DNA from: an uncultured Chloroflexia bacterium
GTDB lineage: Bacteria; Chloroflexota; Anaerolineae; JAAYZQ01
Reading direction: 5' to 3'
Assembly: GCA_963783445.1 (NCBI GenBank)
Contig: CAWANP010000018.1
Location: forward strand, 17,431-81,430
Length of the DNA: 64,000 nucleotides
The notes under the pieces are model-generated. The model did not search any database. It saw only the letters and a list, made by a program, of their open reading frames with translations, and was not told where the DNA came from. Positions 65 to 40,921 of this stretch are shown here, in pieces. The translations under genes were made by a program, and so were the position numbers. Position 1 is the first letter of the stretch. Every line of letters begins with the position of its first letter.

Positions 65-472
65 ATGGAAGATGTCCGGATAAAACTCTCGGCATTGTGG
101 GTCGCTCGCATGTTAACCGGTTTGCAGGGCGACGTGTTGCGCTTCATGGAGCCGGGCATGATGGAGGATCTCGCGGCCGGCGGCGTAGAAGGCATGGCCG
201 TGACCGAGGGGTTGCTGCTGGTCGCCGGAGCCGTCATGCTGATCCCGATCTTTATGGTATTCCTGTCGCTGACGCTGCCCTACAGGGCCTGTCGTTGGGC
301 GAATATCATCGCCGCCATCTTTTTCATTGGCTTTGATGGGGTCGGGCTGCCCACATACACCTCCGCTTACGCGGTCTTGCTGATCGCCGCCGGAATCGTC
401 TTCAATGTGCTCACCGTCTGGTATGCTTGGAGGTGGCGAAAACCAGCGGGTGCGGAGGTTGCAGCACCGTGA
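65..472 (+). CDS. DUF6326-family small membrane protein (copy 1)
   Basis: 135 aa with about 4 hydrophobic helices; N-terminal KLSALWVA..L..L.GDVLRF motif; GGAGG upstream; paralogous to 3306..3671. Confidence 0.75.
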   Translation: MEDVRIKLSALWVARMLTGLQGDVLRFMEPGMMEDLAAGGVEGMAVTEGLLLVAGAVMLIPIFMVFLSLTLPYRACRWANIIAAIFFIGFDGVGLPTYTSAYAVLLIAAGIVFNVLTVWYAWRWRKPAGAEVAAP

Positions 473-1317
473 CCACTCCAGACCGGAAAGAAGCCATTCG
501 CAACATCATCATCTTCACCATCCTGGTCAATGTGCTTGCCTGGCTGGGACCGGTGCTTGGGGGCAGCCCCACGTCGCCCGGCCCCGGCTTCCTGCTGTGG
601 GGCATCGCGCCGCTTGCCTCCGCTCTGGTGATGAAGCTCTTGCTGCGGGACAAGGTATCGCTGGGCCTCAAACCGGCGATCCGGGGAAATGGCCGCTGGT
701 ATGCCCTGAGCATCCTCGCCTACCCCGTCGCCATCGGCATCGTGCTGGCGCTGGGCCTCCTGGTGGGTACAACCACGTCCGGGGATTTTGACGTGTCCGC
801 GTTTCTGGTGGCCATGATCCCTCTGGCGCTGACCTACCTCATCTTTGCCTTTCTTGAGGAGGTGGGCTGGCGGGGCTATCTGGCGCCCAGGGTCTACGGC
901 CTCAATGACGGCCTGCTGGGCCATGCGCTGGTCGGTGTGATATGGGCATCCTGGCACTTTCCCTACCTTCGCGAGCTGTGGGCCCACACATCCGAACCTT
1001 TGGTTGTTCTGCTGCCGCGCTTTGTCCTGGGCGCCATCGTCTTTGCGGTCGTGTATGGCGAGATCAGGATACGTACCGGTTCCGTCTGGCCAGCCGTGTT
1101 GATGCACTGGATAGGCAACACCTTTGCCAACACCCTCCTTGCCGGTAATGCCGGCGCGGGCTTTGTGGCCCTCGTGCCTGGAAAGGAGTGGCTGGGTTCC
1201 TTTGGCGTGGAAGGCGTGTTGATGATCGTCCTCTTTGCTCTGCTTGGCGGCATTCTGTATCTGCAGCGCCGCCGCGGTGAGCCGCATCCCAGCTCGATGG
1301 CAGCGCAGACTGACTGA
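469..1317 (+). CDS. CPBP/CAAX (Abi) family intramembrane glutamic metalloprotease
   Basis: EEVGWRGYL and WASWH motifs plus a later HW motif; polytopic. GTG start at 469 overlaps the upstream TGA (GTGA). Confidence 0.85.
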
Positions 1318-1367: not shown

Positions 1368-2369
1368 ATGAAAGCGGTTGTATGCACGGCCTACGGACCA
1401 CCGGAGGTCCTTCAGCTCCAGGAGATCGAAAAGCCAACGCCCAAGGACAGCGAAATCCTGATCAGGGTTCAGGCCACGACCGTATCAGCCTCGGACGTGA
1501 GGCAGCGCGCTTTCACGTTCTCTCCCTGGTTCCGGATCCCCGGGCGGCTCCTGTTCGGCATTCGAAAGCCCAGGTCAAAGATACCCGGCGATGAGCTAGC
1601 CGGGGAGATCGAGGCCATGGGCAGTGATGTAACAGGATTCAGTGTCGGTGACCGGGTATTCGGAATGAGCTGGGAGTTTGGTTTTGGTGGTGGGAATGCC
1701 GAGTACATATGCCTGCCTGAAGATGGGATGGTGGCCAAGAAACCAGCCGCTCTGACCTATGAGGAGGTCGCCGCCATCCCCTATGGGGGACTGACCGCCC
1801 TGCATTTCCTGCGAAAAGCAGAGATCCAAAGCGGGCAGAAGGTCCTGATTGTTGGCGCCTCCGGGAGTGTCGGGACCTACGCGGTGCAGCTTGCCAAACA
1901 TTTTGGAGCAGACGTCACCGGGGTATGCAGCACGCCGAACATCGAATTGGTCAAGTCACTGGGTGCCGGTACGGTCATTGACTACACCCAGGAGGATTTC
2001 ACCCAGAACGGCCAGACCTACGATGTCATCTTTGACGCGGTCCTCAAGACCTCGTTCTCAAGGTGCAAAGGCTCGCTGAAGGACAAGGGGGTCTATCTCA
2101 CCGTTGATTGGCCCCTTCTTCAGGCGCTACGGAGCTCAATCGGCGGTAGCAAGAGAGTTGTATTTGGCATGGCGCCCAAGAGGCCCGAAGACTTGACTTT
2201 CATGGCCGAGCTCATGGCGGCGGGCGAGATTAAGGCGGTCATCGACCGGCGCTATCCGCTGGAAGAGATTGTCGAGGCCCACCGGTACGTTGAAACCGGG
2301 CGCAAAACGGGAAATGTGGTCATCAATGTAGAGCATGGCAACCAGAGCGAACAGCAAGACTCGCCCTGA
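1368..2369 (+). CDS. NAD(P)-dependent alcohol dehydrogenase / quinone oxidoreductase (MDR family)
   Basis: YGPPEVL, GASGSVG Rossmann motif, [15 protein letters not shown]; GGAGGTG RBS. Confidence 0.9.
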
Positions 2370-2403
2370 TCTCTTCGGGCGACAGGCGAACAGGAGGAAC
2401 GTC

Positions 2404-2850
2404 GTGACCAAAGAGAAATTCTTGACCGTACGTTGGAACAACATTCTTACACTGGCGCTGGGAATTCCCACGCTGATCTATGTCGTCTTTGCCTTTTCTA
2501 CCGGGCTCTGGACGGAGTTGGCTGGGCTGATCGGGCTCGCGATTCTCGGTGTGCTCTACTGAGTCATCATCGAACTCCACACCGCCATGCGGTTCGCATG
2601 GCTTCGCGAAAACTCGGCTGACCCCGTTGCCGTCAAGCAGAGCCGTACCCATCCCCTCTCGCTCATCCGGATGGCCTACAATATCGTATTCTGGGTTTTT
2701 CTGATCCCCTTCTTCACCGCGGTCGACTATGGCGTCGGCTTTGTCCTGTTCACAGCGGTCATCTTCATCAGGCTCGGCCTCAACCTGTATACGAACCAAG
2801 TTCTCAAGGAACCGGAGGAATACGAGCGTTTTCCTTTCCGGATTCCATGA
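2404..2850 (+). CDS. Small polytopic membrane protein with one in-frame TGA (codon 53); candidate selenoprotein, 148 aa
   Basis: AGGAGG at 2392-2397 and GTG at 2404. ORFs 2335..2562 and 2587..2850 share one frame, separated only by TGA 2560-2562 and 8 sense codons. A perfect 8-bp hairpin lies at 2584-2602. Confidence 0.6.
2584..2602 (+). promoter_or_regulatory. Putative bacterial SECIS hairpin
   Basis: GCCATGCG-GTT-CGCATGGC; apical loop starts with G, 29 nt downstream of the in-frame TGA. Confidence 0.55.
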
Positions 2851-3305: not shown

Positions 3306-3671
3306 ATGCTAAACACGCGGATAATAGTCGCCGGCTTATGGGTCGCTGTGATGTTGACCTATCTCTTGGGGGATGTGCTGCGCATCTTTAGCGGCGACGC
3401 CAAGCCAGGAGAGCTCCAGGGGGTAGCGGCCACACAGGCAATGTGGCTCGGCATCGCGGCCATCATGTTGGTTCCCATACTCATGCTCGTACTGACCCTG
3501 ATACTGCCGTATCCTACCATTCGCTGGGTGAACATCATAGGTGCCGTTCTGGTCATCGTTTTCAATATAGCCGGCCTGCCCTACGTGGGCGCCTACGACA
3601 ATTTCCTCATCGCCGTCACCTTTGTCTTCAACGGCCTGACCATCTGGTATGCCTGGAAGTGGGTGGCCTAG
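3306..3671 (+). CDS. DUF6326-family small membrane protein (copy 2)
   Basis: GLWVAVMLTYLLGDVLRIF and C-terminal WYAWKW parallel to 65..472 (WYAWRW). Confidence 0.75.
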   Translation: MLNTRIIVAGLWVAVMLTYLLGDVLRIFSGDAKPGELQGVAATQAMWLGIAAIMLVPILMLVLTLILPYPTIRWVNIIGAVLVIVFNIAGLPYVGAYDNFLIAVTFVFNGLTIWYAWKWVA

Positions 3672-3970: not shown

Positions 3971-4157
3971 AAGCTCCAAAGTCCTGGCTGCTCCCCTCAA
4001 ACTCGCTCCCAGCCCCCGCCTTGGGGGCGTTTGGCGCCACGCGGCAGGTGGCCTTTTCCTGATTTCGGGCAGGTTTTCTCTCCTCCCTTCGCGCTCTTTG
4101 GGTCTTTGCGGTGAGAAGTTGGCAATCACCAACCCCTTTGACAGCCCCTCGGCGACA

Positions 4158-4166
4158 TGATATACT
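4158..4166 (+). promoter_or_regulatory. Extended -10 promoter of the LuxR regulator
   Basis: TG-A-TATACT about 40 nt upstream of GTG 4208. Confidence 0.45.
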
Positions 4167-4207
4167 GGCGTCCTGTGAGCCGCCAAAATGCGACGTGGGG
4201 GACGCCC

Positions 4208-7018
4208 GTGGAACAGGTTCCACTCCTGCAGACGAAACTGTACATTCCACCCGTCCGGTCCGAACTGGTCGAGCGCCCGCGCCTGATCGAGCGACTCGAC
4301 GAGGGATTGCGCCTGGGACGCCGTCTGACCCTTATCTCCGCCCCGGCCGGCTTTGGCAAGACTACGCTGGTCAGTGAGTGGGTACATGGTAGGGGCGTGG
4401 TCACTGCACCCCTGCAGGCATCCGAATCCGCGCTCCCGCAAATCGCCTGGCTCTCGCTGGACGAGAGCGACAGCGATCCAAACCGTTTCCTCGCCTACTT
4501 TGTCGCTGCCTTGCAGACCATTGAAGCCAACATCGGGAAGGGAACACTGGGCGCACTTCAATCTCTCCAGCCACCACCGGCCGAGGAAGTCCTGATCCCT
4601 CTGATTAACGAGATTGCCGCCATCCCGGGCAGGATCATCCTCGTCCTCGACGACTACCACCAGATCGACGCCCAGCCCATCCATGATGCCCTCGATTTTC
4701 TCCTGGAGCATTTGCCGCCACAGATGTACCTGGTCATTGCCACCCGTGAGGACCCGCAGTTGTCCCTGGCCCGCCTGCGTGCCCGGGGCCGATTGACCGA
4801 GCTGCGCGCGACAGATTTGCGTTTTTCCTCCTCGGAAGCCGCCGAGTTTCTAAACCAGGTGATGGGACTAGATCTTTCACCAGATGATGTCACCGCGCTG
4901 GAAAATCGTACCGAAGGTTGGATTGCGGGACTGCAGTTGGCCTCGCCCTTGCTCTGCAAGGGACGATTTCAACGCAAGGGCGCAAAGACACCTCTGGCCT
5001 TATCCGATCTTTCACCGGTAGTCACCGTTTTGTGCTGGACTATCTGGTTGAAGAGGTCTTACAACAACAACCCCAAAGCGTCCAGACTTTCTTGCTACAG
5101 ACTGCCATCCTCGACCGGCTGGCCGGGCCTTTGTGCGATGCCCTCACTCGCCAGGACAATGGCCGGGAGACCCTCGAGATGCTAGACCGGGCCAATCTGT
5201 TCATTATTCCTCTGGATGAAGAACGGCGTTGGTACCGCTATCATCGTCTCTTTGCCGATCTGTTGCGCCTGCGCCTGCGCCAAACGCAGCCCGAATGGGA
5301 GCCAACGCTGTACGTCCGGGCAAGCCAATGGTATGAGCTGAATGGGTTCTTCGATGAGGCAGTCGAGCACGCCATGCGTGCCGAGAATTTCGAGCGTGCA
5401 GCGTATTTGATCGAGGAACGTGCAGATGCGATGTGGGAGTCTGGTGAGCACGCCAAACTGCAGCGGTGGCTGGCAGACTTGCCGGTTGATTTGATCTTTT
5501 CCAGACTACAACTCTGTATCCTTCACTCCTGGTATCTGTTCAGCAGCGGTCAGCAGGATGCGGCCGAGCGGTATCTGCAAGCCGCCGAACAGGCGCTTGA
5601 CTCAAGCACCGATCGCGACACTGAAACCGTGCCGCCGGAGCAAGACCTGTCGTCCGATGCTGACAAGAGGCATTTGCGAGGTAGCGTAGCTGTCATCCGG
5701 TCCTTTATGGCTAGTTACCTAGGAGACGTGCCGGCGATCATTCAGTACGCAGGCCAGGCGCTTGAATATCTTCCCGAGCAGGACTTGATCTGGCGTAGCA
5801 ACGCCGCCATCGCCTTGGGCGATGCGTATGGTTTCAAAGGCGACATGGCGGCAGCGTACAAGGCCCGGCTGGAAGCGGCGGAGGCCAGCGGAGCGGCAGG
5901 CAATACCCTCTTTTCTATTCTGGCCTATCTAAAAGTGGCCATAACCCTGAGGGAGCAGGGCCAACTGCAGCGGACTGTGGAACTCTGCCAGCAACAACTG
6001 CAGCTTGCTGGTAGGTGTGGACTGTCGCAGGGATCAGTGGCCGGCGCTCTGTTGGCGATATGGGGCGAGGTACTGGCTGAATTGGGTGAACTGGAGCGGG
6101 CAATAGATCTGGCGAGAAAGGGAGTGGAACTGACCGAGCGTGGTGGGGCGGCGGCGATGCTCGGCTGGAGCTACCTGTGCTTGATCAGAGTCTTGTTCTC
6201 CGCGGGGGATAGGGCCGGCGCCAAAGAGATTGTCCAAAGGGCGGAGAACACCGCTAGAGAGTCCAGTCTGCCTCCCTGGACGACGAACCAGGTGCTGGCC
6301 TGGCGGACGCGGCTGTGGTTGGCAGAAGATGAGATGGAGGCAGCCTGCCAATGGGTACGCCAGCGTAGGCTGGACACCGCTGAAGGACCGACAGCGCCGC
6401 ACGAATTTGATTTCTTTTCGCTAGATGATCACTTGCTGGTAGCGCGGTGCCTGATCGCTCAAGAGCGGTTGGATGAAGCAAACATTCTGCTGCCAGGATT
6501 GCTCGAAGCAGCAGAGGCGGGGGGACGCACTTCGAGGGCCATAGAAATTCTGGTCCTCCAGGCGTTGGCCTTTCAGGCCGGAGCCGATACACCCAGGGCC
6601 ATGGCCGTGCTAGAGCGAGCCCTCGCCCTCGCTGAGCCCGAGGGCTTTTTCTGTATCTTTGTGGATGAAGGCCCGTCGATGGCTCGCCTTCTCTGCGAAG
6701 CCGCTAGCCGCGAGATCGCGCCAGACTACGTTCACCGGTTGTTGGCCGCGTTCCCTGTTGCTGAAATGGGGTCCACAGGGCCATCGAAATCTCAAGCTCC
6801 AAGAATCTGATTTGATAGAACCTCTGAGCGAGCGCGAACTTGAAGTGCTCCAATTCATCGCCGAAGGGCTAACCAATCAAGAAATCGCCTCTAGGCTTTT
6901 CCTTGCGTTGAACACGGTCAAGGCTCACAACCGTAATATCTACGGCAAACTTGGTGTCAACAGCCGGACGCAGGCGGTTGCCAGGGCGAGATCTTTAGAG
7001 GTCCTGCCCTCTGCCTGA
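4208..7018 (+). CDS. MalT-like (STAND/LAL) ATP-dependent LuxR transcriptional regulator, two apparent frameshifts (~4940, ~6790)
   Basis: LLQTKLYIPP, Walker A APAGFGKTT, LVLDDYH, TEGWIAGLQLA/ALALQG, WYRYHRLFADLL, helical repeat middle, and C-terminal LIEPLSERELEVL...TVKAHNRNIYGKLGV HTH; spread over three ORFs. Confidence 0.9.
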
Positions 7019-39500: not shown

Positions 39501-40921
39501 CTACTTGACTACGTTCGTGACCTCGATGGGCGCCGAACGGGACAGCGTCGTGTAGATCGGGCAGCGAACCTTGAACTCTTCGGCAAGCTTTGCTGCCTGC
39601 TCTTCCGTCGCCCCGGCCAGCGTCATTTCGACACCCAGCGTCTGGATGCGCGGGTTCACCGAGCCGTCCTTCACCCCTCGCGCATCAAAGCTGCCCTCGA
39701 CCTTGGCCGAGATTTCGGTCAGCGGAATGTCCATCTCTTGCGCCGCCGTCTCATAGATAAAGGTTCCGCACGTGGCCAGGGCGCCCAGCGCCAGATCCAG
39801 CGGGTTCCGCTCTTCGTTGGGACCGCCCAAGGGTGGTACCGAATCGACGACAAAGTGGTTCCCCCGCGCAGACACGATGGCGCGCCCAGGCTGGTTCGAG
39901 ATCTGAGCGACAGCTGAAGCCGTCGCCAGTCCTTCGGCTACCGAGGCTTTCTGTTTCTCTCCCGTCGTGATTTCGATAGGCATGGAGCGGATCAGCGTCG
40001 TGTACATCGGGCAGCGGGCCTTGAACTCCTCGGCCAGCTTCGCTGCCTGCTCCTCGCTGGCGCCCTCCAGGTCCATGTGGACACGCATGGCCTGGATGCG
40101 TGGATTCACCGAACCATCCTTCACGACCCTGCTGGGTTAAAGTCGCCTTCCACCGTGGCCGTGATATCGCCTACGTCAAAGCCCTTCTCTTGCGCCGCCG
40201 TCTCGTAGACGAACGCAGCGCACGTGCCCTGGGCGCCCAGCAGCAAGTCCAGCGGATTGATCTCTTCATTGGGCCCACCCAGCGGCGGTACCGAATCGAC
40301 GACAAAGTGGTTGCCCCGAGCCGTCACGATGGCTCTTCCGGGCTGGTTAGACAGTGCGGATACGGCCGAGGCCACGGCCAGCTTGGCCGCCGCCGGCGCG
40401 GCTTCTTCAGCCGTAGCTTCCGTGGCCGCGGCGGCCTCTTCGCCATCGGCTGCCTCAGCCGCGGCCGCCTCTTTCTCCTCGCCAGCCGCATCGGCAGAGA
40501 TGGACGCGCCGCTGACCTCAAGCGAGTAGGAGGCTGCGTCCTGCCCATTCCCCGTATACTCGACGATGAGGTGATGATCCCCCGCCCCGCCAAAGCTGCC
40601 GGTCCAGGACAGGTCCGCATCATCGAACTCGTTCTCGGTGCCGCGGCCCGTCACCTCAAGCTCCTCACCGGCTGCGTAGGCGCGGCCGGCATCCTCCGTG
40701 ACGATCATGAACCCTGCGCCGCCGTCAGGGTCTACGTTCATAAAGACCGTCACCTCTCCATTCCCCGCGACTGCCAGCGTGTACCAGTGCTGTTCGCCAG
40801 GACCCAACTTGGTCATTTCGTCCCCCCCATGACTGTCCGCCCCCACCAACAGCGTGGCTGGCAGCAGCATCAAGGCGACCATAGCCAGAATTCCAAAAAC
40901 CTTAACCGATTTTACAGACAT
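39501..40921 (-). CDS. Secreted protein with an N-terminal beta domain and two tandem OsmC/Ohr domains, frameshift ~40125
   Basis: Signal peptide; Ala/Glu linker; two copies of GNHFVVDSVPPLGGPNEE.NPLDL.LGA..TC...RCP.YTTL. Confidence 0.85.

Follow-up and report, generated by a model that had tools for sequence, protein, structure and literature searches.

Does the TGA at 2560-2562 end one short membrane peptide and precede a second one, or is it read as selenocysteine (Sec) within a single protein? The question arises in a stretch of DNA of 64,000 nucleotides, here called the window, where two open reading frames lie in the same frame and join across this codon; in translation the joined frame reads ...LIGLAILGVLY-TGA(2560-2562)-VIIELHTAMRFAW... 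A sequence-only reading had pointed to this join, which is indeed present, and had proposed that the locus encodes a new membrane selenoprotein with a SECIS-like hairpin behind the UGA. The proposal is supported by the analysis described here: the three tests that were run all came out in its favor, and the one part that fell away is a lower stem suggested for the hairpin. On the comparative sequence evidence, we consider it very likely that the TGA is a Sec codon and that 2404-2850 is a genuine Sec-encoding gene for a small membrane protein.

The signals at the locus itself are as the earlier reading described them. A strong Shine-Dalgarno sequence, AGGAGG, stands 6 nt 5' of the GTG start at 2404, and in the window no run resembling a ribosome-binding site comes just before the internal ATG at 2587. 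TGA is also a normal terminator here, since it ends both the 2404-2850 gene and the gene upstream, which encodes an oxidoreductase of the MDR family. The positions of these and the other features are collected in Table 1.

Table 1. Features of the candidate selenoprotein gene and its surroundings, in window positions
Feature	Position	Strand	Remarks
DUF6326 membrane protein, one of a paralogous pair flanking the locus	65-472		135 aa
CPBP/Rce1-like intramembrane protease ORF	427-1317		Pfam PF02517; shares 46 nt, in a different frame, with the end of the first DUF6326 ORF
MDR-family (zinc-ADH-like) NAD(P)H oxidoreductase	1368-2369	+	333 aa; Pfam ADH_N, ADH_zinc_N, ADH_zinc_N_2
Shine-Dalgarno sequence AGGAGG	2392-2397	+	read directly
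Full selenoprotein gene (predicted)	2404-2850	+	148 codons, TGA at codon 53; terminal stop TGA 2848-2850
UGA, putatively read as Sec (residue 53)	2560-2562	+	TGA-only conservation; Cys in relatives
Putative SECIS hairpin GCCATGCG-GTT-CGCATGGC	2584-2602	+	arms 2584-2591 and 2595-2602, loop GUU 2592-2594
DUF6326 membrane protein, the other of the pair	3306-3671		121 aa
MalT/LuxR-type regulator	4157-6810		split: overlapping ORFs 4157-5185 and 4918-6810, in different frames

Codon 53 in the relatives

A search with the joined protein returned about 33 full-length proteins, which are 52-74% identical to the 148-aa protein, together with about 90 clusters of 87-89 residues that hold the C-terminal part only. 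A profile search of 1.84 billion representative proteins gave 205 hits, mostly fragments that break off exactly at residue 52 or set in at residues 54-62. At the DNA level, relatives are encoded at no fewer than 94 sites in a collection with one genome per species and at no fewer than 292 on metagenome contigs, and 80 loci were kept from each source. Codon 53 is TGA in 76 of the kept genome loci and TGC in the other 4, and it is TGA in 80 of the 80 metagenome loci. In 160 related loci the match extends across this codon and covers all, or nearly all, of residues 1-148. The expectation that the TGA would be kept with coding sequence on both flanks is therefore borne out by the 76 genome and 80 metagenome loci that carry it, and purifying selection acts on the 52 codons that precede the TGA (pN 0.21, pS 0.69).

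Counting the window, the 76 genome loci and the 80 metagenome loci, all 157 interrupted copies have TGA at this position; TAA and TAG never occur there. The terminal stop codons of the same genes are divided among TGA (49), TAA (16) and TAG (14). At the resulting rate of 62% TGA, the probability of finding TGA in 77 of 77 sequences is about 1e-16, a value that ignores shared ancestry. An ordinary internal stop would be expected to drift among the three codons as the terminal stop does, which argues against the TGA being a true stop between two small membrane peptides, one of 52 aa and the other of about 87-95 aa, with the hairpin serving translational coupling, reinitiation or mRNA stability. 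Such a two-peptide arrangement draws some support from annotation, because gene callers and GenBank record the C-terminal part alone, as an 87-89-aa "hypothetical protein", and from the start codons that follow the TGA, which lie 1-3 codons past it in 19 of the 77 TGA sequences (window plus 76 genome loci), with an ATG at +9 in 55 of the 77. However, none of the downstream starts is conserved. The internal ATG is missing in 22 of the 77 sequences, and 13 of them have no ATG, GTG or TTG for at least 17 codons after the TGA, that is, until past the conserved E57-H59-T60-R63 block. Neither a conserved start codon nor a conserved ribosome-binding site was found after the TGA in the 77 TGA sequences and 80 loci, and in 66 of 80 loci the N-terminal start has a Shine-Dalgarno-like run of at least 4 nt before it, versus just 9 of 80 for the internal Met codon. 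Two peptides would also leave unexplained both the residue that uninterrupted relatives carry at exactly codon 53, which is cysteine, and the decay of the hairpin once the codon has become Cys. We judge this alternative highly improbable.

Eight of the cysteine forms were checked in DNA and have a Cys codon at position 53, which is TGC in the four genome loci and in L084, L085 and L086, and TGT in L088. In protein alignments, Cys53 is present in 10 of 10 Cys-form relatives, down to 28% identity, and it belongs to the few near-invariant columns of that alignment along with H59, Y109, R10, N12, G49, W66 and N131. Cys in homologues at this codon had been named beforehand as an outcome that would favor Sec, and in these sequences Cys at the Sec column of uninterrupted relatives is the classical Sec/Cys signature. 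Among the close relatives the Sec form dominates, with 157 Sec copies against 8 DNA-checked Cys copies.

The UGA could instead be read through without selenium, by a near-cognate tRNA-Trp, by insertion of Cys via the Sec pathway, or through a lineage-wide reassignment of UGA. UGA is the leakiest of the stop codons, and public protein catalogues do hold full-length versions of the protein with W at residue 53 (P0001-P0006 and similar entries, many of them ending ...RIPW...), which at face value would be homologues that speak against Sec. These W forms appear in the catalogues but not in the DNA: TGG was found at codon 53 in none of the 168 loci checked at DNA level. For P0003 (locus L081) the DNA has TGA, translation with table 11 does not give the catalogued protein, and the terminal TGA has also been read as W. 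We therefore set the W homologues aside as an artefact of genetic code 4, which is confirmed at DNA level for L081 alone; the other W forms in the catalogues are consistent with the same origin, namely these TGA genes on short contigs to which code 4 was applied. Artefacts of this kind can mislead comparisons of Sec, Cys and Trp forms. Uninterrupted relatives carry Cys, not Trp, and a SelB-type G-U loop is conserved at the canonical spacing, both of which count against readthrough without selenium. Reassignment of UGA is contradicted by the ordinary use of TGA to end the 2404-2850 gene and its neighbor. Selenium-free decoding seems highly improbable to us.

A single relative has arginine at this position (L087 985-1539, from a metagenome, codon AGA). 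It was considered as counter-evidence and rejected: it carries E57K and H59Q and has no proper start codon, so it looks degenerate or recently degraded, and its hairpin is still kept.

That the gene is a pseudogene, or the TGA an error in an indel-rich assembly, is a reading with some basis. At least one gene in the window, the MalT-like regulator, is frameshifted, and the copy of the family in L074 contains a 1-nt insertion. But the same TGA recurs in 156 independent loci that come from many assemblies, species and sequencing technologies, and both halves of the gene are under purifying selection. These comparative sequence data effectively refute the pseudogene and assembly-error explanations, to which we give a negligible probability. 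The insertion in L074 (10001-10445), which is the closest relative in the genome collection at 78% identity over the best tblastn segment, lies just 3' of the hairpin (GGCTTCCGGG) and shifts the frame; it is probably a long-read homopolymer error. The broader remark of the sequence-only reading that most other breaks in the window are indels was followed up at one place, the MalT-like regulator, which is split between frames at about 4918-5185.

Several genomes and contigs hold more than one copy of the family. L081 has two in tandem, at 220-681 and 735-1202, each with its own in-frame TGA and hairpin, and two unlinked copies occur in one genome in CP070639.1 (L049 and L060), DASRZI01 (L003 and L064) and CALJKV01 (L016 and L077).

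The hairpin as a probable SECIS element

The hairpin reported downstream of the TGA was found exactly as described: a perfect 8-bp stem with a GTT loop, in which the apical loop starts 29 nt after the TGA. Opening of the closing G-C pair would turn the apical loop into GGUUC. Bacterial SECIS (bSECIS) elements are characterized by an apical loop of 3-9 nt on an upper stem of 4-16 bp, a distance of 16-37 nt from the UGA, a G in the first two loop positions, typically as N1-G-[G/U]-N-N2, and a minimum free energy (MFE) of -7.5 kcal/mol or lower (PMC13188914). The window hairpin agrees with the model on four of four constraints: its apex is G-GUU-C, its stem has 8 bp, its spacing is 29 nt and its MFE is -13.8 kcal/mol. 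The model fits 71 of the 77 TGA sequences (window and genome loci together) on every constraint, and 6 miss the -7.5 kcal/mol cut-off. Folded as a single sequence, the window element has an MFE z-score of -0.46 against dinucleotide shuffles, which is no better than chance; the window alone could therefore not settle the matter, and it is the comparative data that carry the case against chance.

In those data, 91% of cells pair in the 8-bp stem (80 distinct sequences, 81 rows), compared to 19-54% in slid controls, a range that refers to the whole tested structure where the 91% refers to the 8-bp stem. Compensatory changes occur at pairs 35-45 and 37-43. Pair 35-45 joins the second base of codon 62 to the silent third base of Ala65, and in 140 unique Sec-form segments it is UA in 66, UG in 42, CG in 25 and unpaired in 7. 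Wherever the second position of codon 62 is C, the third base of Ala65 is G (25 of 25; Fisher 8e-10, an indicative value). In L080, a C-G pair has been replaced by a U-A pair at the cost of two amino-acid changes, one from R to W and the other from A to T. The loop codons are frozen, with Arg63 encoded by CGG and Phe64 by TTC in 138 of 138 unique Sec-form segments each. R63 and F64 are the sole positions with zero synonymous entropy, whereas all other conserved Arg and Phe codons of the gene are free to vary (relative synonymous entropy 0.6-1.0). Conservation and covariation of the hairpin, which had been put forward as a check on the proposal, are thus both seen.

The lower stem did not fare as well. 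The two runs proposed to form it, GTCA (2563-2566) and TGAC (2619-2622), both exist in the window, but their pairing is not conserved: 44.7% of cells pair, which is at the level of the slid controls, and RNAalifold predicts the structure without this stem. We have left it out of the element.

The Cys forms show what happens to the hairpin when the UGA is gone. The loop hexamer CGGTTC is changed in L084 (to CGA), L086 (to CTC) and L088 (to ACA and TTT); as for the stem, it is broken in L085 and has one mismatch in L029, and the hairpin is intact in three recent converts. Overall, the hexamer or stem is degraded in 4 of 8 Cys forms versus an altered hexamer in 4 of 140 Sec forms (p = 2e-4), where this p-value, like the others, is only indicative because the tests ignore shared ancestry (phylogenetic non-independence). 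To judge from these sequences, the RNA-level constraint on the hairpin is relaxed once the UGA is lost.

A caveat to the conservation argument is that the hairpin overlaps the conserved residues MRFAW, and part of the conservation could therefore be at the protein level. This motif (residues 62-66) is near-invariant in Sec forms, and remote Cys forms have MLLKW, WRFHR, KRSRW and TIFGW in its place (alignment A3). Because the remote Cys forms do not keep the motif, it seems to be largely the SECIS RNA, and not protein function, that fixes RFAW in the Sec forms. The family offers a clean example of a SECIS element constraining the amino-acid sequence that it overlaps.

We propose a recoding mechanism modeled on that of E. 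coli fdhF. The hairpin at 2584-2602 would hold SelB-GTP-Sec-tRNA(Sec) as the ribosome nears the UGA, which would then be decoded as selenocysteine instead of being read by release factor 2. Where recoding fails, a 52-residue fragment with two helices would be released. The comparative signature of recoding is an observation; SelB binding and selenium insertion we infer, as we do the topology and the function considered in the next section.

Other elements of the same kind were looked for in the flanks, by scanning for an in-frame TGA with a GGU-loop hairpin and for extra copies of the GCGGTTCGC core, and the scan gave only noise. One copy of GCGGTTCGC in the window, on the minus strand at about 39254, has a TGA at the right distance and was rejected because this TGA is out of frame, inside a 58-aa ORF. 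A 207-aa ORF on the same strand (39501-40124) contains an internal duplication, in which the block ...DGSVNPRIQ...EEQAAKLAEEFK.RCP.YTTL... occurs twice.

Protein, neighboring genes and Sec machinery

The sequence-only reading envisaged a 148-aa protein with about four transmembrane helices and Sec at residue 53, at the end of a helix, and the translation and the AlphaFold2 model agree with this. The model (mean pLDDT 86.9) has helices at residues 9-33, 39-51, 55-69, 84-98 and 109-133, with four long helices and a break at residues 52-54, where Sec would sit. By the positive-inside rule, both termini and the 57-84 loop would be cytoplasmic, and Sec53 would lie at the cytoplasmic end of membrane helix 2. 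Most of the conserved polar residues (R10, W11, N12, N13, E57, H59, T60, N93, N131 and N132) are also predicted to be at the cytoplasmic membrane face, and Sec53 would adjoin the conserved E57, H59 and T60, R10-W11-N12-N13 and N131-N132. No column for a second conserved Cys is present in alignments A1 or A3, and there is no UxxC or CxxU motif; a Sec that lacks both such a motif and a partner Cys is unusual for selenoproteins.

The gene directly upstream in the window encodes an MDR-family NAD(P)H oxidoreductase whose stop codon lies 34 nt before the start of the selenoprotein gene. An MDR paralogue lies no more than 6 kb away in 73 of 81 loci. In 41 of the 81 it is directly upstream and on the same strand, with a gap of at most 36 nt in 29 of these. 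The MDR gene is a probable operon partner of the selenoprotein gene, although a strict operon is not supported, since elsewhere the MDR gene lies downstream or is convergent. The linkage hints at a role in membrane redox chemistry that depends on NAD(P)H, and the conserved association is a concrete entry point to that function. Our best guess, held with low confidence, is that Sec53 may be redox-active or ligand-binding and may act on a membrane-soluble substrate together with the cytoplasmic MDR oxidoreductase.

Other neighbors that recur are DUF4386 proteins, DUF6326 proteins, a conserved protein of about 87 aa and MalT-type regulators. DUF6326 family members occur within 6 kb in 30 loci. 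The DUF6326 proteins beside the gene were considered as possible homologues of the selenoprotein and rejected (hhalign probability 0.9%). Regulators homologous to the MalT/LuxR-type protein of the window are found near the selenoprotein gene in 28 loci; the split of the window copy implies a frameshift near 4918-5185, through either an assembly indel or pseudogene formation.

The machinery for Sec insertion was searched for with tblastn, using E. coli SelA, SelB, SelD and FdhF as queries, and with ARAGORN for tRNA-Sec, in the window and 161 related loci. Genes for selA, selB, selD, tRNA-Sec and formate dehydrogenase were found neither in the 64-kb window nor in about 1.6 Mb of related flanks, where the sole match was a weak hit to a generic GTPase. 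SelB and formate dehydrogenases of the Sec type occur in some single-cell genomes of Anaerolineales (PMC4959059), and Dehalococcoidia can have 46-49 selenoprotein genes (PMC13326102). These reports place the Sec trait within the lineage, the source genome itself aside.

Relation to known selenoproteins

The sequence-only reading had described the protein as unlike known redox selenoprotein families, and the database comparisons agree. The window protein has no above-threshold hit in Pfam or NCBIfam, and neither do 33 close homologues in NCBIfam or 8 Cys-form relatives in Pfam. In the PDB, no relative was found by sequence profile, and Foldseek returned no match at E <= 0.001 (best E = 3.8, TM-score about 0.3-0.46). 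A review from May 2026 catalogues 119 selenoprotein families of prokaryotes and gives for each an identifier of the Pfam, NCBIfam, TIGRFAM, CDD or PANTHER type (PMC13188914 Table 1). By its Pfam and NCBIfam models, the 2404-2850 family is absent from this inventory (PMC13188914).

If confirmed, the family adds a membrane-embedded member to the bacterial selenoproteome. It is common in Anaerolineae, and its sources are abundant Chloroflexota of sediment, sludge and marine settings. Public annotation splits or truncates the gene, and some catalogues mistranslate it with W at two TGA codons. Two ORFs in one frame, the first of 52 aa and the next of 87 aa, form a signature that lends itself to large-scale searches.

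For the RNA, the closest parallel is E. coli fdhF, which likewise has an in-frame UGA followed by a hairpin in the coding region with a small loop that starts with G-U (GGUC in fdhF and G-GUU-C in the window). The spacing differs, at 29 nt in the window compared to 18 nt in fdhF. The window element shares with known SelB/SECIS recoding the 16-37 nt spacing, as well as Cys homologues at the same codon, and the consensus bSECIS model applied here is that of Zhang and Gladyshev, as summarized in PMC13188914. It matches none of the bacterial SECIS families in Rfam, which include RF01989 and RF01990, at E <= 10; a cmscan of 2300-2950 at that threshold gave three chance hits to unrelated families and no SECIS family.

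Integral membrane selenoproteins are represented in the 2026 inventory by YeeE/YedE (PF04143, with a GUxSG motif), a MerT-like mercuric transport protein (PF02411), the SO_0444 Cu/Zn efflux transporter (NF033936) and the SaoP permease (NF040733) (PMC13188914). As in these proteins, Sec in the window protein would be located in a small polytopic membrane protein and not in a soluble enzyme with a thioredoxin fold; possible roles of the four lie in metal or chalcogen handling. The window family has no sequence relationship to any of them, and its Sec context is Y/F-U-x-x-[IV]-E-x-H-[TS], with no nearby Cys.

The predicted architecture also resembles that of the membrane thiol oxidoreductases DsbB and VKOR, small four-helix bundles in which a reactive chalcogen residue lies where the membrane ends. 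A further point in common would be a tie to the redox chemistry of quinones or NAD(P)H, here by way of the neighboring gene. In contrast to DsbB/VKOR, the window family has one Sec/Cys instead of CxxC pairs, its predicted site is cytoplasmic and not periplasmic, and Foldseek gives no PDB match.

Set against these systems, it is likely, in our view, that the locus belongs to an uncatalogued selenoprotein family with four transmembrane helices, found mainly in Anaerolineae and with Sec as the dominant form, in which a lone Sec at the cytoplasmic membrane interface works without a partner Cys and together with the adjacent MDR oxidoreductase. If true, this would be membrane selenoenzyme chemistry of a type unrepresented among known families. 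The recoding mechanism is one that is already known; what is unusual is the integral membrane location, the absence of a redox partner Cys and the predominance of Sec among the close relatives.
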